A stretch of DNA of 63,989 bases, filler included, from Diploschistes diacapsis (Eukaryota): NCBI GenBank assembly GCA_023645945.1. It is 7 parts of 7 records of this genome, joined end to end, with 100 filler letters (N's around TTAATTAATTAA, not from the genome) between each part and the next. Parts side by side here need not be neighbours in the genome. Positions count along the whole stretch, not along the records: positions 1 to 28,517 come from JALAIB010000147.1; 6 more parts are not named here. One strand, given 5' to 3'. Positions within the stretch are counted from its first letter, which is position 1. Each line of letters starts with the position of its first letter. Below are positions 869 through 49,255 of the stretch, one piece after another. The translations under genes and the position numbers were made by a program. The notes under the pieces were generated by a model that was not told where the DNA came from, made no database searches, and saw only the letters and a list, made by a program, of their open reading frames with translations.

Positions 869-3800
869 TCATGATGAAGATCCGGCCATCTGCGCCTGCG
901 GAGGTCGCGGGCTCGGGCTGGCGCCGTTCGGCATCGAGCCGCGTCTGCTCGGGACGTTGCCCACGCTGCCCTGGCTTCCGGGACGTATCCCGTTGGCTTC
1001 GTCGTGCGAGCCGCCGCCTCCGCCCCCGCCGCCTCCGGTCGGGCCGTTCCGGTTCGGTTGCTGCGTGGCCTGGTGGGAGCGCACATACTGCGCGTATAGT
1101 TGTGGGTTCATCATGTTGGCGTTGGCGCTGGCGCTGAACGCCATCTGTTGCTGCGGCGAGAGCTGTACGTTGCTGTTCATGGCCATGTTGTTGCTGTTTG
1201 TCTGCTGGATGTTTCGCAGCTGCTGGCTGAGCTGAGTGGTGGCCATCTGCTTGATCTGCTCCGGACTCGCTCCAGGGTGTCTGGCTTTGAGGTGGTTCGA
1301 GATTTGATTGAGCACGGGATAAACGCCGCTGGGCATCTGCTGCGACTGCATGTTACCGCCAATCCCAGGCGAGGCTGACGAGCGAGATTGGTTCGAGGTG
1401 CCGTTTGTTGCTGGACTCAGTTTACCGTTGGCAGCCTGCATATTAGCTAGCATCGCAGCATTTTGCTGAAGCGGCATGTTCATGTTTCCGTTATATGAAG
1501 TGGAAGGGAGGCCGTTCAGACCGTTACTTTGCACTTGTTGCTGTTGCTGCCTCTGTTGCTGCTGCTGCATCAGGCGCTGCTGTTCTTGCTGTAGGCGCGC
1601 AGCCTCAAGCACGATCCTGTCCTGGCCACTGTGGGTGGAAAGTCGCTGCTGACTGGACATGTACGGCTGCATTGACGCTTGCGGAACGTTGCCCACTCCC
1701 CGTATAACAGTCTGGTTGCTTGCACCAGGGTTGCTACTTGGCGTAGCATCGGCCATCGCAGCTGGATGGGGTATACCTCGGTTTCCAGGAGGCATGCCGT
1801 TTGGCGGCAAGGAAGACAGAGGATTGTTTCCGACACCATTTGGCTGAGTAGGAAGGCCGCTTCTGCTGACCTGTGGCATCCCAGATGTGGATTGTGCGCC
1901 GGCCTGCTGAGCGGCCATCTTCTGCGCAACAGCAGCCTTGAAGCTTGTTAATGCCATGGGCAAAGGAGGGAAGACGAGCGACGTACCCTTTGCGTGGCCA
2001 CAAGCTGCTGCCTGTACAACATCTGCTTCTCGCGATATTCGCATTCCTGCTTGTGCTTGTGCGCACTAAGTTCTCGAGGGGTCTGCATCCTCTGCCGTGG
2101 TTGCGTGGGCTCGGTAGCTTTCCTCATCGTAGCAAGTGAAGCAACTGATGAGGTTTCAGCGAAATCCTCGGAGAGGGGATCTGGGGCTTTCCTACTGTGT
2201 TGCTGCTTCTGGTGTGCAGCCTCCCTCTTCTTCGCTAATTTGAACATGCTATGTACAAGTGTCACGTGCTTCGTTTGCCTCCTCTGTCCTACCATTATTG
2301 GTTCCGCAGTGCGTCTCCTCACTGCTGTTTGCGATGTGTTGCTGCTCTGTTGCTGGGCATTGAACGAGTTCTCCAGATGTTCCTTCGCGCTGTCTCGGCG
2401 GGTATTCCAAGTTCGGAAATACTGGTGCTTCCCCATACCTCCAGGAAGACCCTCAAACGAGACCCAACGCTCGAAACATTCCCAAGGCGTCCTCCTCTCC
2501 GCTGCGGACGAGAACAGGGAAGACGACGAACAGGAGGCAGCAATCAGAGACCAATTGTATTCGTAGTCTCTCACTAGTCTTCGAAGCTGGTCATCTTCCG
2601 CGACGGTCCATTGCGAGGGTGTCCGCGACTCGAAAAATGCCTGCGAAGGCATGTTAAACTCCGAAGGGGGTCTGAAAGCATGCGATGCATGAAGCCTTGA
2701 GATGATGTGCTTGCTTTCTGGGTTGAATAGAGCGACGTTATCCTTCTCTGGTACCAGGGAGTCTTTGCCATGTACCAGTGGCAGAAGGGTCCGTCCAGAC
2801 GGGTCATGGCCGATCTCGTCTTCTTCTTCGTAGTCGTATCGGCTTCGCTTTCGCAGAGGCCCCTGCTCCTTCATCACCATCTTGCCGGTAGCGAACTTGG
2901 TCACGGGCACAAGCGGCTGTTTCCACTCGCTGTCCAAGACGACACTGTATGGCCGCTTCTTGCCCCGAACGTCCTTGTAGACCTCGTACATTGGAAGCTC
3001 TTCGAGCAATTTGTCTGCCGATGGTGTATGGTGCATACTGAACACAACGTCTTCCGGCGCAAGAGTAAACAGCGCTCCGGGTGCAATTGATCTAGACATG
3101 TCGACACTGGGAACTTCATCATCGGCTATATCACTTGCATCATCGGCCGTTGACGGGATTAAGTCAGGAGTTGTTTCGGAATGTGAACTGCCATTAGCGA
3201 TTGGAAGTGAAACAGGTGTTATACGGTTGTCCTCGTTAGGAAGTTGCGCCGACTTTTGTGGTTTTACCTGCAAAGCCATCCGCTTTTCTGGAGAGTTACA
3301 GAACCATTCCGCACACCAATCAGCCAGATTTTTCGCAGCCGCGATCTTCCATTTCCTCTCCTCACGGAAATCTGTCCGCATCCACTTTGCTTCTCCCAAT
3401 AGCAGATCCCAGTGTGATACTGGTCGCTCGGGCTCCGATGAGCGCTCCATTTGTCGGAGTGACCATCGATTCGAGTTTTGGAGGTGATATATTCTCTTGA
3501 GCATGCGAGTATCTTGAGTTTCGCGGTATTCAAGGTAATGATTATCGGTGTCAAGAACCTTTGATGACGACGCAATCAAATTGGGAAGTGTTGGTGTTTG
3601 AGCTGTAGCTTGGGTGGCGAAAAGAGTAACAAGATAGTCCTTAGGCTCGGGTGCCTTCTCCTTGCGATGAACATCGTCGGGTTTAGCTTTCAAGGTAGCG
3701 CGACCGCCGGAGAGCTGTTGCCGAGGAAAAACCACAGCGGACAACTTACTCCGGTCCTTTTCTCTCTCTTTGAGCTCGTTCAGGCGGGAACGGAAAGTGG

Positions 3801-5298
3801 CAGATTCAGGCGAGGCAACAAGGCGGCCCACGAAGGGTGTTTGCGTGCCAATCTCGCGAAGCTCATTGCTAACAGCGCACGGAGAGCCCTTCTCTTTCCC
3901 CAAAGCTGATCTTGGTGCCTCACCCAAGATTTCAGATACAGATTTATGACGGAGCACACCAGACGCGTTTCGTGTAGCCATACGTTCTGGAGGCGATGTC
4001 TGCATAGCCATGTGATCTGACCTGAGTGGTGTGGTTGAGTCCGAGGAAGCTTGAGTATTGTAGATAGAGGTATGACGGCTGGTGTCAGTGTCGATCCGCA
4101 TTGGACTTTTCCGGTCAGCGGTCGAACGACCAGATGGGCTTCGCCGCAATGCAAGGCTTGAGCCCAATGCTTCACTACGAGGAACTCCGAGATCATTGCT
4201 TGCTAACTGCATCGCTTGTATAGCCTCTTTGCCGACCTTGTCAATCTCGGGGACTTCCCGTGAGGCACTCGGCTTTGTACTATATTGGCTGCTATTGGCG
4301 GCTTCAAGTTGCAGCTGCGCACTTGGACCCGAACCTTGGTTTGCTGGGGGTGTAACCGTAGAAAGTTCTATTGGCTGAGATGGTCCCAGGCTGGATTCTG
4401 GTGGGCCTTTTTGCTCGTGACTGAGCACGTCCAACGCTCGAGTGCTATTATCGTGTGCTTTGGCGGTTTGGCACATAGCAAGGTCTTCTGAAGATGAGCT
4501 TCTGCCTGAGCGCACTTGCCTCTGACCAAGTTGGCTTTGAGGTTGCAGCTGATTGCTGAAGTCCAGGGCCACTGCTTCCAGGGGTCTCCTTGGTCCAGCT
4601 TCAATACCAGAAGTGTCATCTCTTTGCAATACCACATTAGCAAGCACGCCCTCCATGCGATCCGTATCTGCAATCTCGAAGGCTGTCGTCGCGTTCGACG
4701 GGTTCGGCGAAACTCTCTCTGACAATGGTATTTTCGGCGACGCCGCCAAGTCATGTTGGCCAGGTTTGCCATGAGCTTGCGCATCATGTATTGGGCTAGG
4801 CTTCGCTTTGGCGGAGGAGTCTTCATCAACAACATTATCGGTGGATAGTGAGGAAGTTGCAGTACCATTCTCGCGGGCAGAAGTTGCGCCTGAGGACCTT
4901 ATATGGCTGTTGAGGTCACTCCGAATGCGAAGCAATGTGTTGACATCGAAGTATCGGCTCCTGTGTGAGATCAGCAAGCCCCAAACCACTGCCAAAGCGT
5001 AGTACTTGGATCGTCTTACTTCGATAAGTCGTTAGCATCCAGAAAGGTGGCTTCGTTGAGGATCCTGTTTTCATTTTGCGCAACATGGCGACCTGACTCC
5101 TCGGGCCCCGCAAAAGCTACGGTCGCATGGTAAAGCTCTCGCAACTTGCGCTTACGATTGGCGACAACATTCCTGTTTGCCCATATGAGCGATTTAATTC
5201 CTTCTCAAGAGCGAACTGAGTAGATCGAGCTTTAATATAAGAATTTTGACCTACCCAAGCTCATGGCGTTTGGTTTTGAGAATCCCGTCGCGTATCAT
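869..5298 (-). CDS. EAF1: NuA4 histone acetyltransferase scaffold subunit Eaf1/Vid21 (HSA + Myb/SANT domains, Q/N-rich C-terminus)
   Basis: Spliced model: ATG 5298; GT-AG introns 5173-5254, 4961-5019, 2145-2195 (in-frame), 1937-1986. N-terminus MIRDGILKTKRHELGNVVANRKRKLRELYHATV; HSA motif HWDLLLGEAKWMRTDFREERKWK; SANT motif WTVAEDDQLRRLVRDYEYNWSLIA...RRTPWECFERW. Confidence 0.93.
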
Positions 5299-7729: not shown

Positions 7730-9386
7730 ATGGCTACTAATGGAGACTTTCTCTCTGATGAAGAGTCTATTCCGGGATCCCCACCTTTTGAAGGCGCAGA
7801 CGGTGCGGGTGACGATATCGAGGAAGAAGAGCAAGAAATCACGAAACCTAAGTCAGCATTGAAAAAGACTTCAAAACCAGAACCTGTTCCTCCGGCTCAA
7901 CGACCAGAGCTGCCAGAGCAACGGGATCCCAACACCTTCGATGTTACAGAGCTGACCCCGCTTTCTCCTGAGATTATTGCAAGGCAAGCGACAATCAACA
8001 TTGGAACGATAGGACATGTCGCGCATGGTAAATCAACGGTTGTGAAAGCCATATCGGGAGTTCAGACCGTCCGCTTCAAGAATGAGCTTGAGAGAAATAT
8101 TACTATTAAGCTAGGCTACGCCAATGCCAAGGTGTACAAATGCGACAATGAAGAATGCCCTAGGCCGGGCTGCTATCGGAGTTTCAAAAGTGAGAAGGAG
8201 GTTGATCCCCCGTGCGAGCGAGAAGGATGCACAGGTCGATATCAATTATTGAGACATGTTTCGTAGGTGACATCCTGACGCTTACAAACGCTTTCACTGA
8301 CCTTTGAGATGTCCAGTTTTGTAGACTGCCCAGGCCACGATATTCTTATGAGCACCATGCTTTCTGGGGCAGCGGTTATGGATGCCGCACTGCTACTGAT
8401 TGCCGGTAACGAAACGTGCCCTCAGCCGCAGACATCAGAGCATCTGGCCGCAATTGAGATCATGAAGCTGAAACACATCATCATTCTACAAAATAAGGTC
8501 GATCTAATGCGAGAAGAAGGAGCCGATCAGCATTTTCAGTCCATACTGAAATTCATTCGTGGTACCGTTGCCGATGGTTCTCCAGTCATTCCCATCTCGG
8601 CGCAGCTCAAATACAACATTGACGCCATCAACGAATACTTGATCACTCGAATACCCGTTCCACCTCGAGACTTTGGTGCGGCTCCGCATATGATCGTGAT
8701 TCGATCTTTCGACGTTAACAAGCCAGGTGCTGAGATAGAAGATCTCAGAGGCGGTGTGGCTGGAGGTAGTATCCTGACCGGGGTTCTTAAGCTAGGCGAC
8801 GAGATCGAGATTCGTCCGGGCATAGTAACAAAAGACCAGAATGGCCAGATCAAGTGCAGTCCCATTTTCAGTAGAGTGGTGTCACTGCTTGCTGAACAAA
8901 ACGATCTCAGATTCGCCGTTCCCGGTGGGCTCATTGGCGTCGGCACACGCATTGATCCTACACTCTGCCGAGCCGACCGTCTTGTCGGCCATGTTCTAGG
9001 CCTCAAGGGAAATCTACCAGCTATCTACAACGAGCTCGAGGTCAACTATTTTCTGCTTCGACGTCTTCTGGGAGTAAAAACTGCAGACGGAAAGCAAGCA
9101 AAAGTCGCAAAGTTGGCAAAGAACGAGGTGCTGATGGTCAACATTGGATCGACTGCTACTGGCGCAAAGGTTCAGGGCGTTAGGGCAGATGCTGCCAAGC
9201 TAAGCTTGACAAGTCCTGCGTGCACAGATATAGGAGAGAAGATTGCCCTCAGCAGGCGGATTGACAAACATTGGAGACTTATCGGATGGGCCAACATCGT
9301 TGCGTAAGTAATGCTCCTCTCCAATCCCTCTTGCAGGCCCTAATCAGGCACCCAGTGGCGTGACCCTTGAGCCAAGCAAGGATTGA
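7730..9386 (+). CDS. GCD11: Translation initiation factor eIF2 gamma subunit
   Basis: [20 protein letters not shown] (G1), DCPGHDILM (G3), NKVD (G4), [12 protein letters not shown]. Introns 8263-8316 and 9304-9355; last exon ends GVTLEPSKD*. Confidence 0.97.
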
Positions 9387-10965: not shown

Positions 10966-12612
10966 ATGACGGCCGAAAAGGCCAGCAACAATGAAGCCAC
11001 AACGGCCATGGAGCCCTACTCCGTCTTCACCCGCCCCGAAAAATGGTGCATCATCGCCATGGTCTCCTACGCCGCCTGGTTCTCGACACTCAGCAGCTTC
11101 ATCTACTACCCTGCCCTGCCCGCGTTGGCAATCACTCTGGGCGTCTCCATCAGCGATATCAATTTGACCGTCACGACGTACATGGCTGTCGCCACGATCG
11201 CGCCGAGTCTGGTCGGTGACGCCGCCGATATTCTAGGCCGGCGCATGGTCTATCTGATTATATTGAGCGTCTATTGTGTGGCGAACCTGGCTATCGCGCT
11301 GACGCAGTCGTATTTGGCGCTTCTCGGGCTGAGGGTGTTGCAGGCTTTGGCGATCTCTGGTGGGTGATTTCGAACTGAGTAGGGGCTGGATCTCATCCCG
11401 CTGCAGGTACCTTTTCGATTGCTTATGGCGTCGTCACGGATGTTGCGTCGCCTGCCGAGAGGGGATCCTATGCTGCGCTCGTCTCTTTTGCGTGGGTTAG
11501 CTCCCCCGTGCTCGTAGAAGGATACCCTGACGCCGTCCAAGGATTACTATTGCTCCGAGCGTTGGACCGATTCTAGGCGGGGGCCTGACGTTTGCCGCCG
11601 GTTGGCCTTGGATCTTCTGGTTCCTGTGCATCGCTTCCGGGTCGTGCCTCCTTTCAATGGTCTTTTTCCTGCCTGAGACCTCTCGCAGCATCGTTGGTAA
11701 CGGATCGATCCGGCCACCGAAGCACCTTCAACTGCCCGTTCCGTTGCTAATGTGCCACTGGAAAGACAATCATGTCGCAGCAGCCTTCAGATGGCGGGTG
11801 CCAAATCCGCTGAAATCTCTGGCTATACTGGTTCGAAAAGACAATGCGATCGTCATTCTTGCTTGCGGCTTCCTTTATGTCGTGTACACATGCATTAACG
11901 CTTCGCTTTCTACGCTGTTTATCAGCATCTATAAGCTAAATCAATGGGAGGCGGGCCTGATCTACCTTCCGTTTGGACTCGGCGGAGTGACTTCGACCTT
12001 CATTTCGGGCCGACTCCTAGACCAAGCATATCGCAGATCGAGACTGGAACAAGGCTTGTCCATAGACAAGGTTGTGGGGGACGACCTAGATAATTTCCAT
12101 ATTGAAAAGGCCCGCCTGCGAGTCATATGGATTCCTATGGCTCTTACTGCTTGCTCTGTCGTGGCATTTGGTTGGGTTCTGAATTACCATCAGGTGCGTC
12201 TTTCGCTCTTCGAGCAAAATGTTTGAATATTGATATCGATTGAGAACATTGCTATTCCGCTTTTCCTTCAATTCGTTGCTGGTGTGTGCATGCAACTGGA
12301 TTTTAGCGTAAGTCAGCTTCCGTCTCGGACACCAGTGGTTTCGAGTGACAATTGATCAAGATATATAATACCTTACTTATTGACAAGAATCATCGGGCGC
12401 CAGCGGCTGCTCAGGCCTCGAGTAATATTGTACGCTGCACACTAGCAGCTATTTGCGTGGCGTTCTTGCAGAACATGATCGATGCCATGAGCATTGGTTG
12501 GATTTTCACCTTCATGGGCGCTCTATGTTTGATTGCAATTACTTTTTTTATCATCGACTATTATTGTGGAATGATATGGAGACGGAAGCGAGCCCTTGCA
12601 GAAGTGGCCTAA
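10966..12612 (+). CDS. MFS transporter, drug:H+ antiporter (DHA1-like)
   Basis: YSVFTRPEKWCI..., SSFIYYPALP, GDAADILGRR (motif A), GPILGG/GWPWIFWFL, FFLPETSRSIVGNGS, AAAQASSNIVRC. About 4 GT-AG introns. Confidence 0.9.
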
Positions 12613-12819
12613 CATTAGACTGAGAGACAGCGCGATTATACGGGATAGATATATTATGCGTGCTGCTGTGCTGGCCTCCGTTAACGAAACTAAAAGGGCT
12701 TAGAGCGCACGGGAATATGAAAGGTGGCCCTGAGGAAGACTCCAACGCCATTAGCTTCTAATTACCGTCGTTCAAAGTATCTGCAATTATCAATAGCCTG
12801 AACAACCTGACCACATCTT

Positions 12820-15800
12820 TCAAGCCAAAGCTGCGGAGCGAACAAGCGCAACCTCGCCATTTCTTGGCACCATCAAGGATTTCTCCGCGGGCCAGATGCA
12901 AGATAACGTCAAGCAGTCTCTCCCTATCCAGTCGCCAGGCAGCAGGAAAAGCTCTTTGGGCGTCTTATCCGAATTGGCACTGATATTGGAGCTGGGACGG
13001 CCAATCAGTGGTGGCCTTGCACTGCCTGAAACCTTGCTCATGCCCTCAGGACGGTGGCTCCCGGAAGCGGCGGAAAACATCGGATCTGAAGACGGTGGAA
13101 GTCGCCAGGTGCAAAGAGCGAAGTGCTTCGAAAGATATACAAGACGGTCGTGGGAGAGAAAAGAAAGAGCGAGCGTAATCTCCGACGCGGTGGCGTGAGG
13201 CAGAAGCGCCGGAGTGGTATTTATTTTGAGCCCAGAACCTACAGATTTTGAAGTTGCGAACGAGGATGTCTCGAAAAAGAGAAAAGTCTTTGCCTTGGTG
13301 TGCTCTCCCGAATGCGATACCTGGACCAAAATGCGTTTTTGATCTTGTGTGATCAAGACTCGATCGATGGTTGACGGCCTGTTCGAAACGGTTTCTTTGC
13401 CTTGGGAAACCTCTGGTAGTATTTGAGTTTCGAAAACGCATGTCTGGATCTCGACCAAATCCCATCTCATCACATGTACGTGGCCTGGTGCGATGCCTAG
13501 GAGCAATGATGAATCTTGAGGATGCAGGAGCCATCTGCACTTGTCAGTATGCCATTTGAGTGACTTGACAATGGCAGAGGACCCTAGTGAGATGAGGCAG
13601 ATTGTAGAAGAAGTGTAGACGAAAAGAGATGCCGAGTCAGAGTTAAATAGAAGCTGTAAAATAGGACCTTCCGTGTTACTCTTTACTGAAAGCTCTGTTC
13701 GCAGATCAATTATTACATCCGTCCCAGGAGTTGCGACAGCAATTGACTTTACGAAAATCTTCTTGCTTGAATCGGAAAAGCAGATGCATGTTCCGTCTTC
13801 GCTCCAAGCCATTTGCTCGATGCTGAGGAAACCCTTGGGCGTATGGGCATTCAGATGCTGGTTCTGAAATTTGTCGAAAAGACGTACACTTCCGTACTCG
13901 GTGCCGTAGCAATAGAAACGACCACGGGATGAGGCCACGAGAGTGGTGATTGATTGGACCTTCGTGTAGCTGGCAGTTGCTATGGTGCTTTGCATTATAC
14001 TCGTTGTCTCATTATCCGAATTCAGGCCCCGTCCTGCCTGTGCCGTGAACCTCATTAGTGCAGAAGGCTCCCAAGCATTTCCGTACTCGCCTCGAATGTC
14101 GTAAAAGCGATTTGAGTCGGGGCTGAAAGCCAAGCCAAGAATACTGTCTTGAGATGCTAACTGATACACAAGACTAAAGTCAAGAGTATTGAAGATCTTG
14201 ACAATGCCATGCACGTCGCCGGTTGCAAAGAGATTCCCGTCTCTGCTAATGGCAAGTTTGGATGCTCCAGTAGTGAGCTCCTCTACTTCACCTTCATAAG
14301 GACTCCATTTGAAAACGATTCCCTCGATGTAAAGACCAAGGACCTCTGGCGCGTACGGATGCCAAGCGGCGTCGATGACTTGACCTCTGGTGAGCTCTTC
14401 GCCTTGCCGCCAGCAATGACCGATGTGTACTGGGCCGTCGGTTTCCCATGCCGAAAGTGGATGACCCCGGTAAGCCACAGCGATAAGACTGCCATCGCTG
14501 TTGAACGCCATGTAGCTCGATGAATTCAAGAAGTGGCCCTCAAGCTCCGGCTCTTCAAGCTTGGCAGCATCCTGCCATGTGGAGGAAGGATCTGTCAAGT
14601 CCAGTGACAGGATCCGTCGGTCATCTACGCCCACCAGCAGCTTTGTGTTGTTATCCATTAGAAGCATGGCAAGCGGCCGGGGTCGAGATTCAATATTGGC
14701 GACTGTGAGTTTACATCTGCCGGATCTGATGTCCCACAACTTGGTCGTCTTGAAGCCGTGGGTTACGAGTAACGTGCCAGTGCTGTTGAGCTCCATCCTG
14801 TATAAACGTTCTCCATGTCGAATAGGACTGGCTGCGATTTCTTCGAATGTTGAGGAGTCGAATATCTGCACTACGCCTGAAGAGGCTAATATTGCAACAT
14901 GCTTTCCCATGGTACATACGGACGAAGCATAAACCCCAAAGCCAAGGGGCAAACGCGCTATCAGATCATCCCAACTATCGGTTGTCTGGCCCGTCACAGC
15001 GAGGTTCCTCGCTTCCTGCTTGCCGAATTGTTGATAGATCGCAGAGGTAGGAGGGCAGAATGGAGGAATAAGCTTGTGGATAGACTCAGGGCTCCGCCGA
15101 AGACTCGATCCGAATTTGCCAACAATCTTAATAAGATCCTGGTACCAACTTTCGAGGAGCTGTTGCTGTATTAGATCTATACCCTGACCATCCTGGGCTG
15201 CCTTTTCTTTCCTCCATTTGGAGCAATATTTTGAGAGGTGTTGAGACGCTTGAACAAGCGTCGGAAACGCTTTGTTTGTCGCAATGATTTGGATCCACGT
15301 CAACACCCAATGGCCGCTCAAGAACCTGGTGAGCGTTTCGATAGCATCCTCGTCTCCAAGAGACGTGTGCGAGAGATGTGAGGACCACCAAGTAGATGCA
15401 TAATCGAGAAACTCAGGTCCTGCATTCCGATGCACCTTTCCTCTAAGACTCGGGGACATGAGGCATCGCATGCAGCTCAAGAACAACTGCCTGTGAGCAA
15501 TATTGTAATCAATTTGGAATGTGGAATTGTTGCGATTGGAAAGATACTCTCGAGCAGTCTGATGTACCATAGCGACATTGTCTCCATTGTCGATGACCAC
15601 GAAGCCACCGCATAAATCCACGACCGATTGCTGAAAATCAAGGACTCCGGAACTTTCATGGCCAATTGCTTCAAAGAGCTCTGCTACTGTCATTGTTCGC
15701 AGCGAGCAAGAGATACATTCCAACACGGTTTTTGCTAAAGCCTTGCTCGTCGACGAAGAATTCTGAGCTATCGAGTCTGCCATACGGTCGTAAATTGCGT

Positions 15801-18066
15801 CCATACCAGCTGGTAATTCCTGAAAGGCACATTCAACGTCCGCATGCGTCCGACACGTGTTCAGTTTCTGGACGGCGAGTCGTACCCACTATTTAGTTAA
15901 TAGAGGGTAAAGGCACATGGCTTTCATGAACTTACGAGAAAGTTGTTCTGAGATTCCTCCAACAATCTTTCCACAATTTCATCGCGAAACTCAGTAGTGC
16001 CAAGCATATCGAGCTCTTGCAGAATATAAAGGCGCAAGTCTTCGGTTTGGCCTTCGAGACTAATGACACTCGTATGCAGTGACCTTGGGGCTTTCTTTAG
16101 TGCGTTGGTAACTTCAGAAGTATCACGGCTGACCAGCAAAATTTTGATCGGGGCGAAGGATGTCGGGGTATCTGAAATGAGTTTGATGATCGCTTTTGGA
16201 TCCTCAGCTTCGTCAATCCCATCTATGACCCAGTACAGTGGCTTGCAGTTCGCCATTTTAAACAGAACTGATCTAAATAGTCGTCCCCATATGGTCTTCG
16301 AATCTGCGTTTTCGAGATTCACTGCCTCATCGGCTACCCCATATACTCCTAGCAAGAACTCTGGTACACTCTGTGCGATCTGATAGGCGATAGAGCGTAG
16401 CAACATGGTCGAACTTCTCTTGATTAGATCTGCGAATTTTATGAAGAAGTATTGACAGCATTCGCCTTGCTCCATGAGGGTATTAATAATGAAGGAGGAT
16501 ATGACTGATTTCCCTGTAGCTGGGCCACCTTTCAACCATAGTACGTTGGGCGTAACGGCTTCAGTGCTTCGCCACCGGAGGAATGCCTCGTCGTTGAGAA
16601 TCCATTCACCGGTGCCCGGTGTCCATTGATCGCGATAAAAAATGTAGTCCGTGTCCGGTAGTTCGGCAATTCCCAACGTTGTCTTGAGGTCACGCGAGTT
16701 TCCTCGGCTCGATATGGAAGGTTTTCTTGAGCCACTGCCGCTTTTCGCAAGTACCTTACTCACAAGGGATTTCAGAACATTTCTGACCACAATATAGTTC
16801 GGATCTTTAGGGCCATCATACTTGCAGACGCCGTGATGATCGGCGTCTAGGGCTTTGGAGATCTCCCCGGGATATCCGAGTACAGAGGAATCTTTCTCGA
16901 GCACCATCTACTGGCCTTAGTCAAGCCCGAATAGAACGCTTGGAGGGAATTGGCTTACGACACGTGTAACTTTTAACCCAATCGTAGTAGGCTGGGTCTC
17001 GTAGAAGGAGATGATGTCAAGACTGGGCGCAATATGGCGGAACTGCTCATTGAGCTTCTGTAATTGGAACGAGTTCCTAGCGAGATCTGATATGTATTGT
17101 TTTGTATTGCTAACGACCGTTGACTGCAGGATCCGATTCAACGTCATGGCAAGGTTCGTGCCGCGATGAGGCGTTGCAAGAAAGGTTATCGCGGAAACTG
17201 CCTTGATGATAGACATGTACTCTGGATCATTCTGACCTTGTAGATATGCCTAAGCTTCGTTAGTACTCGCGCGTGAGTTTGAGACTAAGACGTTGCGGAA
17301 GACTTGGGATCATTGGAACTAATCAACGTCCCATGTTTTGATTTACGCGTGAGCAAGTATGTCGCATTATTCAGGCAATGACCTTACTTCTTTTACGATC
17401 AAACCTCCCATGCTATGCGCCACGAAGATAAGAGGAACCTAGGGCCTGGTTAGCAGAGCTTCCTACGCGAAGCTCTCAATATACACTAACTTCGCCCATA
17501 TAAAGTTCTTCTGTCTGGTCATTTTTTGCGTACTTCAGATCGAAGAGAAGATCTTTAGCAAAATCCAGGACCGATGTCCCGATGCTGCCGGGTTTGACGA
17601 TGTTAGCATTGTATCCGAAAGTTAGGATCCTCGCCAGACATATATCGGGCTCCAAGGGAAGAAATGTCAACGGCCAGAACAATTCCAAGTTCTTGTACTT
17701 CGACCAGGACCACTTGCTGGTCCCTCCGAGTCCGTGAATGAAGATGATATTCAATTTATGGCCATTTGGAGGCGTATAGACGACATTGAGACCCGGCGGA
17801 CCTGACCCGGTCTCACTGTGTCTTCGATGGAATGAGTCTGCAGCTGTAGGAGTAACCGATAACCTAGAGAGAGGTGAGGTGGCTCGTCCGTCAAGCGGAA
17901 GTTCAGGTGAGCTTAATTGATGCGTGTGAGATCTTGATCGACGTTCTTCTAGGTTTTCAACCTTCTGATCCTTGTTGATGGACTTTTCTCTTGAGCCGAA
18001 CACTTTTGAAAACTAGTGTCACTGTAAGTATTCGAATCCTAGAATAAAGACGTAAGAACCTACCAT
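12820..18066 (-). CDS. Fungal NLR-like protein: N-terminal alpha/beta hydrolase (SesB/DUF676/PGAP1-like) - NACHT NTPase - WD40 repeats, ~1635 aa
   Basis: Exons 18064-18066 (ATG only), 17491-18012, 17388-17438, 16959-17249, 15936-16907, 12820-15888 total 4908 nt in one frame. Motifs: IIFIHGLGG, nucleophile elbow FVAHSMGG, FLATPHRG, DADHHGVCKY; Walker A WLKGGPATGKS; Walker B WVIDGIDE; WD-like LAFSPDS, AFNSDGSLIA, KLWD. Confidence 0.9.
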
Positions 18067-18471
18067 GACCAATCATAGAGGCGTGTCGCAATGCTATCTC
18101 CACTTCGCAACTGCACTGAATGCTCCAAAACCAGCGTAATTGTTGTGTACTTGGATGCAATGCGCAAAAGCGCTGGTTGCAATTGACAGCGTATTCGGGG
18201 CCTTGCAGCGTTTTATCTGCAGCGCGACTCTGGAGCAAGGCTGGAATGGATGGCGTATCGCTCCAGCTCGCCGTATGAAAGTAGTCCGTGTCATGATTGC
18301 TTTTTACGGAGTGTGCATGTCTCGGCCGCACACCGCACGCTATCGACAGCCTATGGCCTAATCGGCTTAGCTTTGAATGGCTCCACCAGCCTCCATGGGA
18401 TTTGAACGAAGTACTAAAGGCAGATCTTACAGTTGTTGCAACTTTGGCTCTTTGATCCTGCCGTCAGAAAG

Positions 18472-19749
18472 ATGACTGACAATTGCGAGTGGCTGACTGA
18501 TATCGGTGGGAGCTTTCCGCTGCATAGAGCTGTACTCCAAGGTATGAATTTGCAAGCTGCTGGATAAGCGTGGCGCGATAACAACGTCGAAGCAATGTCT
18601 CAAGGAACGAGAGTTCTCGCGGCGGAATCTTCGGGCGTTTCTGCCTGGACAAAAACTGCCAAAGTCGAGGCGCTGTTGCCGGACGGAAGTCCCAAAAGAT
18701 ACTTCTTGAAGGTAGGGATATGCACATCATCTTGCTTCTGTACACGTCACTAAGGACAGTTGGGTTGCAGTGTGCGTCAGGCCGAGGCGCTCGACCTTTG
18801 TGCGAAGGAGAATATCATTCCGCACTTGCTATTGACCAAGTAGTACCGCAGATGGTGCCGAAAGCTGCAGGATGGGGGCAGTATCGTGATGGCGAAGCGG
18901 AGATATATTTCTATCTCTCCGACTTTCACGACCTGGACCTTTCAGCACCTCCGGAGCCTGTCAACTTCACTGCCCAAATCGCAGAGCTTCATAAAAACGG
19001 CACGTCTCCTAACGGCATGTTTGGTTTTCCTGTACCCACTGTTATCGGTATCCTGGAGCATACAGTGACCTGGGAAAAGAGCTGGGCAAAATCATTTACT
19101 CACCTGTTGAAAGACGTCCTTAGATATGACACCGAGACCAATGGACCGTGGTTGGAACTGGAAGCCGCTTCCAACCAGCTCATTGATGTAGTCATACCTC
19201 GCCTCCTTGGTGTACTGCAATCAGACGGCCGGGAGATCAAGCCTGCTCTGATTCACGGCGATCTGTGGGAACAAAATATCGGAGTCGACATGGAAACGGG
19301 CGAGACTGTCGTATTCGATCCCGGTAGTACCTATGCCCATAATGAGATGGAGTTCGGTACCTGGAGGTGCTCCTGGGCGTTCCATTTCAAGAACCCTGTT
19401 TACATGCGAATGTACCAAAGGCATATAGAGCCCTCGGAGCCAGCAGAAGAATGGGATGATCGGAACCGGCTGTACAGTCTTCATCCGTACTTGACTGACT
19501 CCGCAGGGCATCCGGGAAGTACCTCGAGGGCCATGTGAGTATCTAAACTCGAACTCAAGTTGGCGCTGCTGAAAAAAAGCGAGCAGAGCGTATAACGACA
19601 TGCTATGTCTCTGCGAGAAGTATGGGCCTCTTGAAAATCTGGAGAGGTATGACGCGGGAAAGGATATTAGTCTGACCGGCGCTCATGTTCCGCACTCTAC
19701 GTATCTCATGGAGCAAGCTAATGCAGAGAAGAGGCGACTTCATCTTTAG
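18472..19749 (+). CDS. Fructosamine/ketosamine-3-kinase-like protein (APH/protein-kinase-like fold), ~371 aa
   Basis: Exons 18472-18541, 18593-18711, 18771-19534, 19587-19749 (1116 nt, in frame). Motifs KRYFLK, GEYHS, SPNGMFGFPVPT, catalytic LIHGDLWEQN, VFDP, YAHNEMEFG, PSEPAEEWDDRNRLYSL. Confidence 0.9.
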
Positions 19750-20448
19750 GAGAAGTAGTGACGGACGGTTTTATTTTAAGGTCAGAAGTACGAATGAAGT
19801 CAAGCAAAGTTAAATAGATCACAAATATCTTAGGCGGCTAAGAAACATATAGTAGGGCTAGAAGTCCGAAGCCCTTCTCAACCTTTTCAACGGCTATAAA
19901 ATAGCCTACCTTTATCCCGTTCTCTCTTCGCGGAGAAAGACCCAAAGGACCGTGTAGATGCTATCCACCTCGATGCCTGTAGTATCAGCGGCTAAAGGGC
20001 ATGTAAGACTTCCTTGAGGAATCAAATAGAATATCCACACTAGACCATGGCCTACAAAGTTATTTCCCCCTCATTCTCCCCTCTACGAAAGTATTTTACG
20101 GGTTCGAGTTAGATTACTACTAGCTTAGTATACTACGGTTTCAGGATGTTATCTAAGGCTGTTAAATTACTAGCATATTGTACTATCGTGTATCAGTTGT
20201 AACAAAGTCTACGTCTAGCTCAAATCAGCAATTTTCAACATCCACGCCTTTTCCACTTTTTCCCACCCGGTATTGTTGCTCTTCGCCTTGGGTCTTAGAA
20301 ACAATACCCCTTTCCTGCAGCTCCAGTTTCTCAAATCTTATCTCATGATCTGCTTCCTCTGAATTGGCCGCGTAAAACATCTGACTTTATGAAAAAAACC
20401 GGTTTAAACTCGGGGAATGGACAAGAGACTGCATAATCCGGATCTGAT

Positions 20449-23293
20449 ATGACGGCCCGAATAACATCACAAACCACCTTCGATGCCGAAAAAATCATCC
20501 AACCGATTTATACGGGAGGGGATGTAGCTACAGACCATGAGGGTCGCATTTTGGCCACTTGTCTTGGAGAGGAGGCAGTGTTGACAGATCTAGCAACTGG
20601 CGAAACGCTAGCTAGAATTGAAGGGGTGCGTCAAAACTTAGCTCAGTATAAAGATTATGGTCTCATTTACTTTAGGACGGCGAGGTTCTGACAACCTTGA
20701 AAAGTAGGTGATTTTGCGGTGCTACGATTCGCTTTAATGCCTCTCAGTTACCCCCTCCGCTTCCCATATAATAACATGCTCCCGGTCTCTTTCTATGCGA
20801 ATTTACTCCTTAGATCACTCTCAAACTCCGAGCGCTATTGCGGTGAGCCTTCAACGCACGCTCAAGCCGCACACTAGCCCTGTCATAACAGCTGCTATAG
20901 ACCGCTCTAGCAGCTTGCTCGCAACAGGAAGTAGCGATGGCGTTATCAAGGTGTGGGACATTCGCGGCGGTTTTATCTCCCATACTTTCCGAGGCCATAC
21001 TGGAGTGCTGTCAGCTCTATGCTTTTTTGAGTTGCCTCCGGAGCTCGCGGCATCGGAGGCTTCTGCTATATCCACTGAAAGACGCAAGAAAAGCATCCTG
21101 AAAGGTAAAGTAAGGAAAAACCAAGCCAATCAAAAGTCTGCTACAGAAACATCAGCTTTGCGTCTCGCTTCTGGTGGCGAGGACGGCAAAATTCGTGTCT
21201 GGGACTTGGTCAAGCGAGCCGCTGTGGCATCTCTTGAATCCCACGTCTCGGTAGTTCGTGGTCTTGACTTTTCGCCAGTACAGGCAGTTTTACTTTCTGG
21301 GAGTAGAGACAAGACACTGATCGTCTGGGATGCCAGAACCTGGGAAACTGAACGAATCATACCTGTATTGGAGAGCGTGGAAGCAGCTGGCCTAATTGGA
21401 GACGGACGGCTTGCATACAGTGGAGGCGAACGAGGAAGATTACGGATATGGGAGGTAAAAACTGGGAGAGAAGTGACAACCGAGCAGCAATCAGGTGTCG
21501 AAGATGAAGGGATAGTAGATGTGCTTTGGATATCTGCGGATCAATCCCTATTGAGCATTCACGCCAATCAAGCGCTCGACTTCTATTCCATTCGTGGCCT
21601 CGCTATTACTTCGCAAGAGACCACTATCGACCCCCTACCACTTTTACGACGAATATCTGGGACACATGACGAGGTTATCGACCTTGCGTATGTTGGATTA
21701 CGCAAGAATCTGATGGCTTTGGCGACAAACGAGGAGTACGTTAAGCTCGTGTCCGTGATTAGTCAAGACGAGGTCTCTGGAAACGCTCCCTATTTCGGCG
21801 CCGATGTAGCCCACCTCCAAGGTCATGAGGACATAGTGATCTGCCTTGATGCAGACTGGTCAGGATGCTGGCTTGCGACGGGGGCTAAAGATAACACTGC
21901 ACGTCTCTGGCGGATCGATCATTCTGCGGGGTTGTACGATAGTGCAGCCATATTTACGGGCCATGCGGAGTCCATTGGTGCAATTGCGTTACCTTTGCAG
22001 CCTCCGCCGGCCGATTCTGCAGCTTTTAAGAGTCCGTTACAGCATCCGCCTACTCTCATGCTCACCGGCTCACAGGATAAGACTATCAAAATGTGGGAGA
22101 TTTCGAATAAAGCAGGGAAACCCTTGCAGCCTGCTGGAGCGCTTTACACGAGAAAAGCGCACGAGAAAGACATCAATGCTATTGCTATCAATCATAACTC
22201 GACTCTCTTCGCTTCAGCATCTCAGGATCGAACTGTGAAGATCTGGTCCCTACAGGAGGGTGAAACTCAAGGAGTTCTGCGAGGACATAAACGTGGTGTG
22301 TGGTCTGTTAAATTCGCACCCAAGGACACGCCCACCATCACCGGCGACTTTGGCGCGGCTAGCTCCAGTCGAGGACTTGTGCTCACGGGGAGCGGCGACA
22401 AGACGGTTAAAATCTGGTCATTATCCGACTATAGCTGTGTTCGCACCTTCGAGGGCCACACTAACACAGTTCTAAAGGTGCTCTGGCTTCCACAGTCTAA
22501 TCAAGAAGATCCCGAATCAAAGAAAAAAGCTCAACCCTCCGCCCTTGTAGCTTCGGCAGGTAGCGACGGCCTTGTAAAAGTGTGGGACGCTCTGGACGGT
22601 GAATGCGCCTGTACGCTCGACAACCACACCGACCGCGTGTGGGCTCTTGCGACCAATTCTTCCACGGGCCATTTGGTATCGGGAGGCGGCGACGGTGTCG
22701 TCACTTTCTGGGCGGACACTACGGCGTCGACAGCCGCTGCGACTGCGGCAGCCTCTACAGCGCGCGTCGAGCAGGAGCAAGAGCTCGCTAACCATGTGCA
22801 CCGTGGCAACTACCGCGATGCCATCGTGCTCTCGCTCCAACTCAACCATCCGGCGCGCCTGCTTGCGCTCTTCAAAGATGTCGTCGAAAAGCACCCGCCG
22901 GAGCAGGGCTCGATGTCGGGCCTGGTAGCCGTCGACAATGTCCTGGCAGAACTGGGGGACGAGCAGCTATACACGTTGCTGCTACGGCTCCGAGACTGGA
23001 ATACGAATGCCAGGACCGCACACGTGGCCCAGAGGATCATGTGGGTGGTGGCAAAGAACTATCCGGCTAGTCGGCTTGTTGGCTTGAGGAAAAAGGGCAG
23101 AGGCCTGGGCGATGTGCTGGACGCGCTCAGAGCTTACACGGAGAGGCACTACAAGAGGTGCGAGGAGCTGATTGAGGAGAGCTATTTGGTGGACTTTGTG
23201 GTGCGGGGAATGGAGGATGGCGGTTTTGTGGTGGATGATACTTCGCTGGTCAAAGACAGCAAGGCTGAAGCAGATGTGATAATGGTCGAATAA
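20449..23293 (+). CDS. UTP13: U3 snoRNP/SSU processome WD40 protein Utp13 (TBL3)
   Basis: N-terminal IIQPIYTGG, many WD repeats (GHKRGVWSVKF, SGDKTVKIWSL), C-terminal Utp13 domain RVEQEQELAN...LRDWNTNARTAHVAQ...YTERHYKR. Two short introns at about 20626-20747. Confidence 0.93.
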
Positions 23294-45470: not shown

Positions 45471-46285
45471 CGGCAAGTCTTATTCTGCCTACTATACACA
45501 TAAATTACATAATAAGTATTATGGTTCTTAAGATACTTTCTCAGTCATATTAATTTATATATAACCATAAGTATCTATAGAACTAACGTTTTTTTTAATT
45601 ATATTTATTTACTTAACGATCGCTTATATATTCTTTTTTTAATTTTTAATTTTATTATTTTAATTTTTTTTTAAATATTATAAAGATTTTATTATTTATT
45701 CGTTTTATTCGCTTTACGCGTTTTATCGTTTTTTTTATCGCCGCCGAGACCACGTTCGATATAATCGCCGATAACGATAAACTAGATCTTAAAAATTTTA
45801 TACTTTACGACGCCCTTTCCGCCGCTTTAGATCGTGATGTTATCCCTTCGCCCGCTCCGACGCCTACTACCTTACCGTTCCGTGATTCGTTTACCTTCGT
45901 TATTCTCGTCGAGTCTACGCGGGCCTCGATATTTTTACCGCCGTTATTTATTACGGGGAGGCTTTATAGTTTCCTTACGAACCTTTCGACGTGAAAAACG
46001 CGTTTCTTTATTATCGCGGATATCCTTCGAATAATCGTAACGAATTTTAACGCGTTTTAATTTTACGTAAATAATTTCTAAACGTTTAATCGAACGTCTA
46101 AAAATATTATATAATATCGTTATTATTATTAACGAAACGACGATAATAATACGACATTTATTACGCGTAATATCGATATTAAAAAAAAATCACGCGCGAC
46201 CGCGTAATTTATAATATAATTATCGTAATTCGATAAAAACGTCGGTTATAAATAAATCGTCGCCTTATTTAAAAATATTTATATA
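45471..46285 (+). mobile_element. Heavily mutated (RIP-like) DNA transposon: end A plus internal relic ORF
   Basis: Starts CGGCAAGTCTTATTCTGCC. The interior is very AT-rich and stop-riddled, with most remaining C/G in CpG. Possible BED-finger remnant SNV*KYY...YA*Y (restorable to SNVWKHY...CAxC) at about 46090-46173. Confidence 0.7.
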
Positions 46286-46385
46286 NNNNNNNNNNNNNNN
46301 NNNNNNNNNNNNNNNNNNNNNNNNNNNNNTTAATTAATTAANNNNNNNNNNNNNNNNNNNNNNNNNNNNNNNNNNNNNNNNNNNN
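46286..46385. other. Artificial contig-joining spacer
   Basis: N44-TTAATTAATTAA-N44. Confidence 0.97.
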
Positions 46386-46516
46386 ACATATATTTATATA
46401 TAAATTATATAGAGATCTAAGTATTTAATAAAGTCATAATGAACTAAATAGAATGCACACTAAGGCGCTATTAAATATGTTACACAATTTTATAATAGGC
46501 AGAATAAGATATACCG
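46386..46516 (+). mobile_element. Opposite terminus (end B) of the same TIR element family
   Basis: ...TATAATAGGCAGAATAAGATATACCG is an imperfect ~26-bp inverted copy of end A with a different AT-rich subterminal sequence. Confidence 0.6.
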
Positions 46517-46850
46517 AGATCTTCGGGCCCTGAGACCATATTGAATGCTTAGAAGCCAAGCTCAAAGCATGCAGGCTGCAGGCGCAAAAGATTCACCACG
46601 GATAGGCACCTCGTAGTAGAGTAGAACTCACTTTGATTATATTCACTGTTAGACTCGATTGTCTTCACTCAAGCTGTCAGACTTTTCATCCTTGAAATCT
46701 CTCATCTCTCATCTCTCATCTTTCATCTCTCAACTCTCAACTCCCCTTCGTCATCTTCTTCTTCAGGTAATACTTCAAGTCCACCGAAAGAGCTTATCAG
46801 AGATCATCATCAACACTCTACTTAATCTAGATCTCTAGATTACTGTCAAG

Positions 46851-47494
46851 ATGTCAGACACAGGAAATGTCATTAGAGGCCACAAGGCTGCCATGAACAA
46901 CCCAAGTAAGCTTTCACATCGAATCCTCTCCAGTGTTGAGCTTCTGATTTTGTACCCGTGCTCAATCCTCAATCCATTGGATTCCCACCAATTCCACTCA
47001 CACACCTGCTGAACCTCTCTCCCTTACAGACGTCTCCGACGAAGCAAAACAGCACTCCGCCCAAGTCGTCTCCGAGCTCTCTGGCTCCAGCGAGACCACT
47101 GGGCAGAAGCAGGATACTGGCAAGGACCCCAGCCGCATCGTTGGAGGCCTGAAGGCGTTAGTCACAGCCCCCTTTCCTTCCACCCTATCCCTCCAAAAAG
47201 CCATCAAGCTCACTGGACTCAGAACCATCAGCAACCCTAGAGTTAGCGACGAAGCCAAGCTCGAGGCTGAGCGTAAGCTCGAGCACCTTCCCGAGAGCAA
47301 CACCGCTGCTGCTGGCGAGCGTGATGATGGCAAGGATCCGGAGGCCGTTGCGCGTGGATTGAAGGCGTAAGTCAGCATGATGTTTTGTTTGAACGTGAGA
47401 TGTTGAGTACTGATGCAGGTCCATCACCAACCCCAATGTCTCCGACGCGGCTAAGAAGGAGGCTGAGAGGAAGCTCAAGGAGATGGGTGCTTAG
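46851..47494 (+). CDS. Conidiation protein Con-6 family, three repeats
   Basis: Exons 46851-46905, 47030-47156, 47223-47366, 47419-47494: NVIRGHKAAMNNPNVSDEAKQHS / DPSRIVGGLKATISNPRVSDEAKLEAERKL / DPEAVARGLKASITNPNVSDAAKKEAERKL. Confidence 0.9.
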
Positions 47495-47812
47495 GGTGTC
47501 CATTCCTTCGAGCATGCTACACGTAGTTATCTACGGCTTACTGGTGCTAGTTGGTGGATACCTACAATAGTAAGGAGGGGATTAGTCATTCAATTGCTTA
47601 AAGGGCGAAAGGTAACATGAGTTAATCATGCAACCTTGTAATTAGGCTCAAGCTACCAAAGACTTAAATGAATCGATCATCATTCCGAAGTTCATCCTAC
47701 TCAGGCATCCCTAATGCCACAACAATCGTAAACAAACTCTACATATAAGCAGAGGATTACCTCCTTTGCGGAAATTGCCCATCGCGGGTCATGACGGCAG
47801 CTCGGAGAGATC

Positions 47813-49255
47813 TCAAGTTTCCGGAGCAGGCCTCAGGGCAAATTGCTTCATGTACTCGTAGTCTTCGATATTGGCATTGACCGTATCGCGAATCAGATTA
47901 GCAGCTTCCTCGCCGAATTTCTCCGCCCAAGTATGGTCTTCCTTGATTGGAGTCTTGGGTCTCTTGTGCTGCGGGTACCATTAGCAATCTACAGAGTACG
48001 CCAAAAGTACGCTCCTTACATGCATCCGCGGACGCAGGTCCGAGCTACCAATAGCATCTTCGTGGAAGCCCTTCCACTTTTCAAACGCATGGACCGCCCG
48101 CTGATGGTCCTCCTCCGTGTCCCAGACCAGCATATCGGGGTGAAAATCCAAGCCGACGGACTTGCAGTAGGCCCGGATGATCCCGGAGGGATCGTCAAGC
48201 AGATCGTCGGCGTCTATGACGCAGATCTCGACGCCGCTACTTTTCTCGCCATCGGCGGGCTGGCTGTTGTCCTCGCCAGCGACCTCGGGGCCGATCTGGC
48301 CGGTGGAGCGGAGCCAGTCGAACACACGTCGGAGCTCGTCGTAGCCGGACTCGTTGGGCAGGAAATTGTAGAAGCCCGTTATTTCGTCAAGGGGAGGGAC
48401 CATGCAGCGGTAGTAGGAAGGCACGCTTTTGCCAGGATGGCGGATGAGGAAGGTGAAGTGGAACTTCCGGAGGATTGCTTCTGGGACGACTGTGGGGTTA
48501 TTGGGTTCTGGCTCGGTATCGTAAGGGTAGGGAGTCCCCGAGGCGCAGGTTCCATTCTTGTTGTTGGATTCCCCGTCAGTCGTCCCAGAAGTGCCAACGC
48601 CGCGTTTGATCCTGAGTAGAGATGGGGCTATGGATGGAGGCTTTCGGTTGGGAGGCACCAAATAGTAAATCATGTCCTTGATGAATAGACGCTTGCCCTG
48701 ACGAACCTGTCAGTCTTGTGTGCAAGAGGAAAGGCCATATCCGGTACATGGAAGGAACGTTGTTCACGCATAATGCACGAAACTTCCAAAACATCTTCGC
48801 AAAGGAGGCAGACTAAGAAACCACATTGTATAGACCCGGATCACTGCAGGCTATGGGATTGAAAGGATAGCGCAAGCGCAAAGCGAAGACCATAAATCAG
48901 AGATTGACGCGAGTAGGGCATATATAATATCTTTATCAAGGGGAAAGCGTCAAACCTCTTCGCTCTCTCGATCAAATCTATCCAGGACCGTCTTATAGGT
49001 CGAATTACTGAACCCACTCCCCTGTCTTGCAGATTCATTATTCTCAAATCTCTCGCCTAGCCTTTCTGTACCGTAGTAAAAAGCATCACCAAAAGGCTCA
49101 TGGATACAAGTCATGTCGTTATGACGAGTCATGAAAACCTGCGTGGGCCGCGTTAGTTGAAAGCTTTCGAGGATAGGATACATAGACCAAACCCTCTCAA
49201 ATGCAGTCGAACAGGCCCTCGGGTGGGTAGCCACGAAAATCGGTTTTGCAGTCAT
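47813..49255 (-). CDS. P-loop / sulfotransferase-like fold protein (conserved fungal family)
   Basis: MTAKPIFVATHPRACSTAFER|VFMTR...HEPFGDAFYYG...|GKRLFIKDM...NPTVVP...FTFLIRHP..SVPSYY...VIDADDLLDDP...WKGFHEDA...DYEYMKQFAL. Three introns. Confidence 0.8.

Follow-up and report, generated by a model that had tools for sequence, protein, structure and literature searches.

We analysed a 63,989-nt stretch of fungal DNA from a lichen metagenome assembly (Diploschistes diacapsis, GCA_023645945.1), composed of seven parts of seven records joined end to end, and the whole of this stretch is referred to here as the window. In its first part (positions 1 to 28,517, from JALAIB010000147.1), the gene for a NOD-like receptor (NLR) and the gene for a kinase of the fructosamine-kinase family lie head to head, and a transporter gene of the major facilitator superfamily (MFS) stands beside them. 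The first-pass annotation had singled out the kinase and the NLR and had likened them to the vic4 incompatibility locus of Cryphonectria parasitica. The following gene models were predicted from the sequence:

12820..18066, minus strand: NLR gene, 6 exons, 1635 aa, intact; exons 18066-18064, 18012-17491, 17438-17388, 17249-16959, 16907-15936 and 15888-12820
18067..18471: divergent spacer, 405 bp between the ATGs at 18066 and 18472, presumed to hold a shared or bidirectional promoter
18472..19749, plus strand: kinase gene, fructosamine-kinase family (aminoglycoside phosphotransferase, APH, fold), 4 exons, 371 aa, intact; exons 18472-18541, 18593-18711, 18771-19534 and 19587-19749
10966..12612, plus strand: MFS_1 transporter gene, 5 exons, 481 aa, convergent with the NLR gene, the two stops 207 bp apart; exons 10966-11359, 11407-11491, 11542-12193, 12245-12307 and 12361-12612

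The introns of the NLR model are GT..AG throughout. Its one-codon first exon is backed by homologues, as an MF[RSQ]K start was found in 11 of 15 annotated full-length homologues as well as in the window model. An independent run from a different study (X2) provided contigs that span the whole region at about 99% identity. Among the 12 indels listed of the 26 between X2 and the window, five full-depth ones fell at 12820-19900, and these were located in predicted introns (17353, 17468 and 19571), in the spacer (18278) and past the kinase stop (19811). Together, the gene models, the homologue-backed start and the placement of these indels confirm the pair as it had been described, with two intact, divergent genes whose start codons are 405 bp apart. 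The NLR was present in X1, X2 and X3, all from the window's own species.

The NLR begins with a disordered, Ser-rich N-terminus, followed by a SesB-like alpha/beta-hydrolase, a NACHT domain, a winged helix, a helical linker, WD40 propellers and a conserved C-terminal motif. Its NACHT-type NTPase was confirmed by Pfam (NPHP3_N/NACHT-type, 2e-43) and by Walker A and B motifs (GPATGKS and DGIDE). GPIID_WHD, a winged helix typical of fungal NACHT proteins, matched at 4e-14, and matches to WD40 propeller families and PF00400 place WD40 propellers at the C-terminus. The N-terminal domain was below the Pfam threshold and is recognised in the window protein only by its HG oxyanion motif (FIHGLGG) and its GxSxG nucleophile motif (AHSMGG), and four of six full-length homologues had sub-threshold matches to DUF676, Abhydrolase_6 or PGAP1 in this domain. 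Across 23 de-duplicated loci the Walker A GKS was kept in all 22 NLRs covered there, as were D[GA][LIV]DE and the HG motif. For the nucleophile, [AV]HSMGG was found in 16 of the 19 NLR rows covered by a high-scoring segment pair (HSP), the other three reading AHIQGG, TTSL and SRSXGS. Against solved structures, the NLR gave weak WD40 matches only.

This architecture is that of the SesB-like/NACHT/WD40 class of fungal NLRs, in which the SesB-like N-terminal domain is a predicted lipase/esterase related to human SERAC1, according to the available excerpts of Dyrka et al. 2014 (PMC4986451). The same excerpts cover domain architectures and describe no fixed kinase or transporter neighbour. Within this class the window's lineage is distinguished by its conservation, with 50-62% identity between the 1022-aa C-terminal exon and proteins from Lecanoromycetes, Eurotiomycetes, Sordariomycetes, Leotiomycetes and Dothideomycetes, and by the lack of high-identity repeats. 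Tandem Repeats Finder detected no DNA-level tandem repeats in the WD region, and positions 12800-18500 yielded only an 11-nt microrepeat. The NLR is thus not of the hypervariable HET-E type (HNWD: HET-E/D/R), and that assignment was rejected.

The main kinase exon matched Pfam PF03881 (Fructosamin_kin) at 94.4 bits, where the cut-off is 22.4 (E 1e-26). The predicted protein carries the RYFLK Lys, EGE, HGDLWEQN, FDPG and FDPGSTYAHNEMEF. One homologue (P0034) aligned through the catalytic motifs (residues 60-313 of 361) with the solved chains 6OID (4e-19) and 9CX8 (3e-15), which are FN3K and FN3K-RP and read HGDLWSGN in the catalytic loop. The HxD Asp was kept in 22 of the 23 linked kinases from the de-duplicated loci and the metal-binding FD Asp in all 23, and AHNEME was also kept, so far as residues tell, the kinase appears to be catalytically competent. 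In the family alignment, H[GA]DLWExN is a hallmark of the whole NLR-linked kinase subfamily. The loop HGDLWEQN, which the first-pass annotation had thought compatible with a diverged substrate, is therefore not private to the window kinase but a subfamily feature that separates these kinases from the solved FN3Ks. The subfamily shares with the latter its Pfam family, the type of catalytic loop and the metal-binding Asp, and differs from them in this loop, in the motifs YAHNEME and EWDDRNRLY, in a variable copy number, in linkage to an NLR and in a conserved C-terminal extension. This extension (residues ~318-371, positions 19587-19749; AYNDML.LCEKY.PL..LE.YD...D) lies beyond the region aligned with solved FN3Ks and might serve in docking.

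The kinase exon is 65-79% identical to proteins from the same five classes. Published counts of PF03881 genes are 0 in Neurospora crassa, 3 in C. parasitica, 3-8 per Diaporthales genome and 29 in Ophiognomonia clavigignenti-juglandacearum (Table S1 of PMC7331620). In Cladonia grayi, the excerpts at hand of PMC6652019 record seven family members, three of them induced in co-culture. A plain housekeeping FN3K was rejected as an identity for the window kinase, given copy numbers from 0 to 29 and the linkage of these genes to NLRs described below.

Two exons of the transporter matched Pfam MFS_1 (2e-13 and 6e-16). The acceptor of its last exon was picked because homologues read straight through the ...YNTLL(V/I)D...NIVRC segment. 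At window position 12395, in a GGG run of this exon (which was read by homology), X2 has a full-depth 1-nt deletion, which either is a genuine frameshift of that isolate's transporter or stems from faulty assembly. X2 has another 1-nt deletion at 12201, within a predicted MFS intron.

We then considered the linkage of these genes in other fungi. Eighty metagenome loci were fetched by kinase alignment and searched with the spliced NLR. An NLR homologue of full architecture lay upstream on the opposite strand, head to head with the kinase, in 47 of them (median distance between the first HSPs, 999 nt). A single locus (L027) had another order, with the kinase at 987-2273 (+), an MFS gene at 2616-4061 (-) and the NLR from 5204 (+) to the contig end. 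In nine loci the NLR was missing although 3 kb or more of upstream sequence was available, and 23 with less than 3 kb were uninformative. The head-to-head adjacency of the window recurs in 47 of the 57 loci that are informative. After removal of duplicates at 97% kinase identity there were 53 groups, 31 with an NLR, 5 without and 17 uninformative. In protein searches, kinase and NLR matches agreed in the length of their longest contig in 12 cases, among them contigs of 8.1 kb and 22 kb; four of the cases were named genomes, Daldinia eschscholtzii, Hypoxylon sp. FL1150, Halenospora varia and Xylogone sp. The linkage extends to paralogous kinases that are only 40-50% identical to that of the window, whose NLRs are full length and 30-41% identical.

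An all-against-all clustering of open reading frames (ORFs) from 36 loci, in which the window was not used, recovered the kinase (36 loci), the NLR (29) and the MFS transporter (24) as the only widely shared families. The next real ORF family was found in 7 of the 36 loci, a cluster of 21 loci being an antisense frame of the kinase. The window's MFS gene has homologues in almost all of the loci. Of 23 complete de-duplicated loci, 21 had an MFS homologue directly next to the kinase or the NLR, though not always at the same place or in the same orientation, and the other two (L029 and L061) had none. Among seven rows lacking the NLR, only one had the MFS gene. The kinase, the NLR and the MFS transporter thus remain neighbours while all other neighbours change.

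Trees were constructed for the kinase (23 rows, careful search), the NLR (23 rows, quick search) and the transporter (21 rows, quick search). Two clades, A (9 rows, including the window) and C (7 rows, with the same inner structure), were starred in all three. The smaller clade B (L047, L055 and L061) was starred for the kinase and for the NLR; the MFS tree lacks L061 and does not resolve L047 and L055. In the test of congruence that the first-pass annotation had suggested, the kinase and NLR trees agreed, with 12 of 20 splits in common and a patristic r of 0.90, where 2000 label shuffles gave on average 0.23 and at most 4 common splits. The MFS tree shared 10 of 18 splits with each of the other two (r 0.75-0.80), and none of 2000 shuffles attained the observed r. 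The trees disagreed over L032, which belonged to clade A in the kinase and NLR trees and, on a long branch, to clade C in the MFS tree. Since clade A alone spans five classes at 65-79% identity and PF03881 genes are published as multicopy, we infer that clades A, B and C are paralogues that arose before the ascomycete classes diverged.

The adjacency in other genomes and the congruence of the trees make a functional two-gene module well founded. What the first-pass annotation had overlooked is the transporter, a conserved third member. Since the three genes are inherited together across many distantly related fungi, they probably form one working unit.

The NLR was destroyed independently in three haplotypes. 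From inside the NLR onward, L012 matches L010 and L011 at 99.85-99.94% identity; of the NLR it retains residues ~64-176 and no more, and beyond these come at least 5 kb at 15-31% GC (L012:1-5332). L068 is 93-97% identical to L064 and L065 from about 730 nt upstream of the kinase onward, and its NLR and MFS genes are replaced by a block of at least 9 kb at 29-37% GC (L068:1-9100). In L005, a deletion of about 1.55 kb has taken the spacer and the first ~200 NLR codons and left the kinase coding sequence intact (L005:9657-9698 vs L002:8141-9695). Further loci with the kinase only were L003/L024, L025/L026, L036 and L060/L069. Loss of the NLR has left kinase-only haplotypes.

In L003 and L024, the 1-8 kb upstream of the kinase hold an AT-rich block at the expected site of the NLR, as in L012 and L068. 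The blocks of all four loci have 15-37% GC and are almost devoid of ORFs. They look like repeat insertions mutated by repeat-induced point mutation (RIP).

Divergent haplotypes were found in a second set of contigs. Between L002 and L004/L008, 500-bp bins of the flanks were mostly 90-100% identical (range 69-100%), compared to 76-88% from the 5′ half of the NLR to the 5′ end of the kinase, and the spacer could not be aligned. Synonymous divergence (dS) between L002 and L004 was 0.52 in the NACHT domain, 0.48 in the hydrolase, 0.39 in the winged helix and linker, 0.30 in the kinase and 0.19 in WD40, against 0.02 in the adjacent MFS piece and 0.11-0.12 in the two longest downstream flank ORFs. 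The ratio of nonsynonymous to synonymous divergence (dN/dS) was 0.14-0.26. The island of raised dS occupies about 4-10.5 kb of L002, L004 and L008 and is centred on the 5′ half of the NLR, the spacer and the kinase. Judged from the sequences, this is the pattern that would be expected of old, maintained haplotypes. Overall, the block is dispensable and variable in copy number, its enzymes are under purifying selection and its NLR is recurrently lost.

In the window, the trio is flanked by an ORF at 8279-9307 (+), which we take to be a translation-factor GTPase (eIF2-gamma-like), and by one at 20437-23293 (+), presumably a nucleolar protein with many WD repeats (UTP13-like). A homologue of this downstream WD-repeat gene was found in none of the 80 kinase-seeded loci. 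Elsewhere in the window, positions 46001-48000 have its lowest G+C content (0.415, compared to about 0.5 in the rest).

Incompatibility pairs composed of an NLR and a linked partner include PLP-1/SEC-9 (vic2/vic2a) and HET-E/HET-D with HET-C. In these, a lipase-type NLR is linked to the protein that it senses, and different genera have kept the pair and put it to use again in allorecognition. The kinase and NLR described here share with the PLP-1/SEC-9 type both conserved adjacency and a common phylogeny. They differ from these pairs in that the partner is an APH-fold kinase and not a SNARE or a glycolipid-transfer protein, the hydrolase is SesB-like and not patatin, and a transporter is added. 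In plants, NLRs are paired with kinases in ZAR1 with the RKS1/ZRK pseudokinases and in Prf with Pto, where a kinase-fold protein serves as NLR bait or co-receptor, as we propose for the window. The plant partners are ePK-family (eukaryotic protein kinase) protein kinases or pseudokinases and the pairs are not divergent genes, whereas the kinase of the window is of the FN3K family and apparently competent by its residues. A description of an NLR-linked fructosamine kinase module was not found in the open-access literature, subscription journals not being covered. Two genome papers, in the excerpts available, remark on unexplained expansions of the kinase family (PMC7331620, PMC6652019). The module belongs in concept with the linked NLR-partner pairs, and what is new is the kind of partner and the transporter.

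At vic4 of C. parasitica, allele 1 is described as "protein kinase c-like" and allele 2 as "NACHT-NTP/WD", and the two are mutually incompatible (excerpts of PMC8923234). The vic4 locus is likewise stated to encode a protein of the STAND class (signal transduction ATPases with numerous domains; excerpts of PMC4986451), and its phenotype, which is known from C. parasitica only, is given as a weak barrage with no virus restriction (excerpts of PMC7849911). The resemblance to both vic4 idiomorphs that the first-pass annotation had proposed holds in domain content, as published, and at the level of domains only: kinase-like and NACHT/WD proteins occur at one locus in both cases. At vic4 they are reported as alternative alleles, whereas in the window they lie in cis together with a transporter, and in cis they also lie in the 47 head-to-head loci.

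On this evidence, we suggest that the three genes are an ancient module of filamentous ascomycetes, inherited as a block, in which the NLR is a surveillance receptor and the kinase its monitored partner; we give this reading about an even chance. The WD40 and linker regions would hold the kinase or read it, be it the protein as such or its substrate-loaded state, and the substrate may be a small molecule moved by the MFS transporter. An altered kinase state would release NACHT-driven oligomerisation. This would unite the N-terminal lipase/esterase domains and lead to membrane damage or remodelling, and so to cell death or a defence response. In populations, mismatched kinase and NLR alleles, or the presence of one partner and absence of the other, could give vegetative incompatibility like that of vic4. 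As the thing monitored we favour, from comparison of the genes, the kinase protein, possibly in a substrate state that depends on the transporter. Two points speak for a protein partner: the kinase and the 5′ half of the NLR diverge together as haplotypes, and a kinase-like and a NACHT/WD protein are incompatible at vic4.

Several observations count against this proposal. The kinase is more conserved than the NLR (65-79% vs 50-62% across classes). In at least five groups it is intact where the NLR is missing, and it therefore has a function apart from the receptor. The presence of a dedicated transporter points to small-molecule chemistry, which would be superfluous in a pure protein-guard model. 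Divergence peaks over the hydrolase and NACHT domains and is lowest over WD40, which is not what an arms race at a sensor surface predicts. The island, which resembles the outcome of balancing selection, is seen in three metagenome contigs of one lineage, and three short flank ORFs, defined from stop to stop, gave noisy dS. Congruent trees prove co-inheritance and co-duplication, with shared history and linkage, and not contact. Finally, the co-occurrence of clades A, B and C in one genome is inferred from published copy numbers only.

Other explanations compete with, or would add to, the monitored-kinase module. The strongest is direct descent of vic4, in which the cis pair is the ancestral state and each of the two idiomorphs of C. 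parasitica lost one gene of it, the NLR in one case and the kinase in the other. Besides the agreement in domain content as reported (kinase-like vs NACHT/WD) and the three PF03881 genes of C. parasitica, the NLR has been lost with retention of the kinase several times, so that an origin of idiomorphs by gene loss is plausible on one side. A kinase-seeded scan could show loss on that side only. Against this descent, "protein kinase c-like" need not mean PF03881. In addition, a query with a clade-A kinase of Cytospora (Diaporthales) returned no C. parasitica protein among the 120 matches listed of 774, which does not in itself show absence. If vic4-1 is FN3K-like, it is therefore probably not a close orthologue of the window kinase. 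We consider this descent possible, with chances somewhat short of even.

A second explanation is surveillance or detoxification of a small molecule. Here the transporter would move a xenobiotic or an Amadori-type compound, the kinase would phosphorylate it and the NLR would sense the compound or its product rather than the kinase protein, with a lipase response when handling fails. The co-inheritance of the transporter with the kinase and NLR fits this well, and so does a kinase that keeps all its catalytic residues and whose fold has small molecules or glycated amines as its targets. The WD40 region is also conserved and non-repetitive, as it would be for a fixed ligand. However, the co-divergence of the kinase and the 5′ half of the NLR as haplotypes is left unexplained, as is the incompatibility of kinase-like and NLR alleles at vic4, and the transporter is missing in two of 23 complete loci. 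That the kinase is kept where the NLR is gone weighs against this explanation as well. We regard this explanation as rather unlikely.

Less probable still is a metabolic or membrane-homeostasis cluster with no role in nonself recognition or cell death, composed of a kinase for deglycation or amine-sugar salvage, a transporter and a STAND protein that works as a regulated lipase, all three co-regulated by a shared promoter. For NLR-type loci, the kinase and the NLR show unusual conservation, dN/dS lies well under 1 and high-identity WD repeats were not found, all of which would suit such a cluster. Set against this are copy numbers that swing from 0 to 29 among related fungi, with none in N. 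crassa, the repeated destruction of the NLR by AT-rich insertions or deletions and the local rise in synonymous divergence. Such traits belong to loci for defence or incompatibility that are dispensable and polymorphic, and they argue against a metabolic cluster, which we consider distinctly improbable. Chance or passive synteny, in which the genes are neighbours only for want of rearrangement, would account for the shared phylogeny, which linked genes acquire automatically, yet it is hardly credible and was rejected, being contradicted by the ORF clustering (no other neighbour is conserved, the next family reaching 7 of 36 loci and the downstream WD-repeat gene none), by shifts in the order and orientation of the MFS gene while the trio persists, and by retention of the trio in paralogous clades with kinases only 40-50% identical.

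A bolder form of the monitored-kinase module can be entertained, which we judge rather unlikely as it stands. The trio would be a widespread, ancient innate-immunity module in which a small molecule, either a xenobiotic or a compound of the Amadori type, is handled by the kinase and its dedicated transporter, and in which the NLR monitors the kinase state and sets off a response through its lipase; vic4 would be a degenerate, reciprocally pruned descendant of it. If this is true, the NLR would be the first in fungi with an identifiable ligand-processing partner, and vic4 would gain a mechanism.

Of the dozens of NLR-like genes in fungal genomes, very few are understood as to what they sense, and those few are linked to the protein that they monitor. 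The family described here offers two candidate partners beside the NLR, an enzyme and a transporter, which have been kept across ascomycete classes and through old duplications. With both candidates adjoining the receptor, the question of what a fungal NLR senses can be put to a direct test in model fungi from which the family is naturally absent. The family also explains the odd expansion and contraction of "fructosamine kinase" genes in fungal genomes, and it provides vic4, which is less well understood than the chestnut-blight fungus's other incompatibility loci, with an origin and a working hypothesis.

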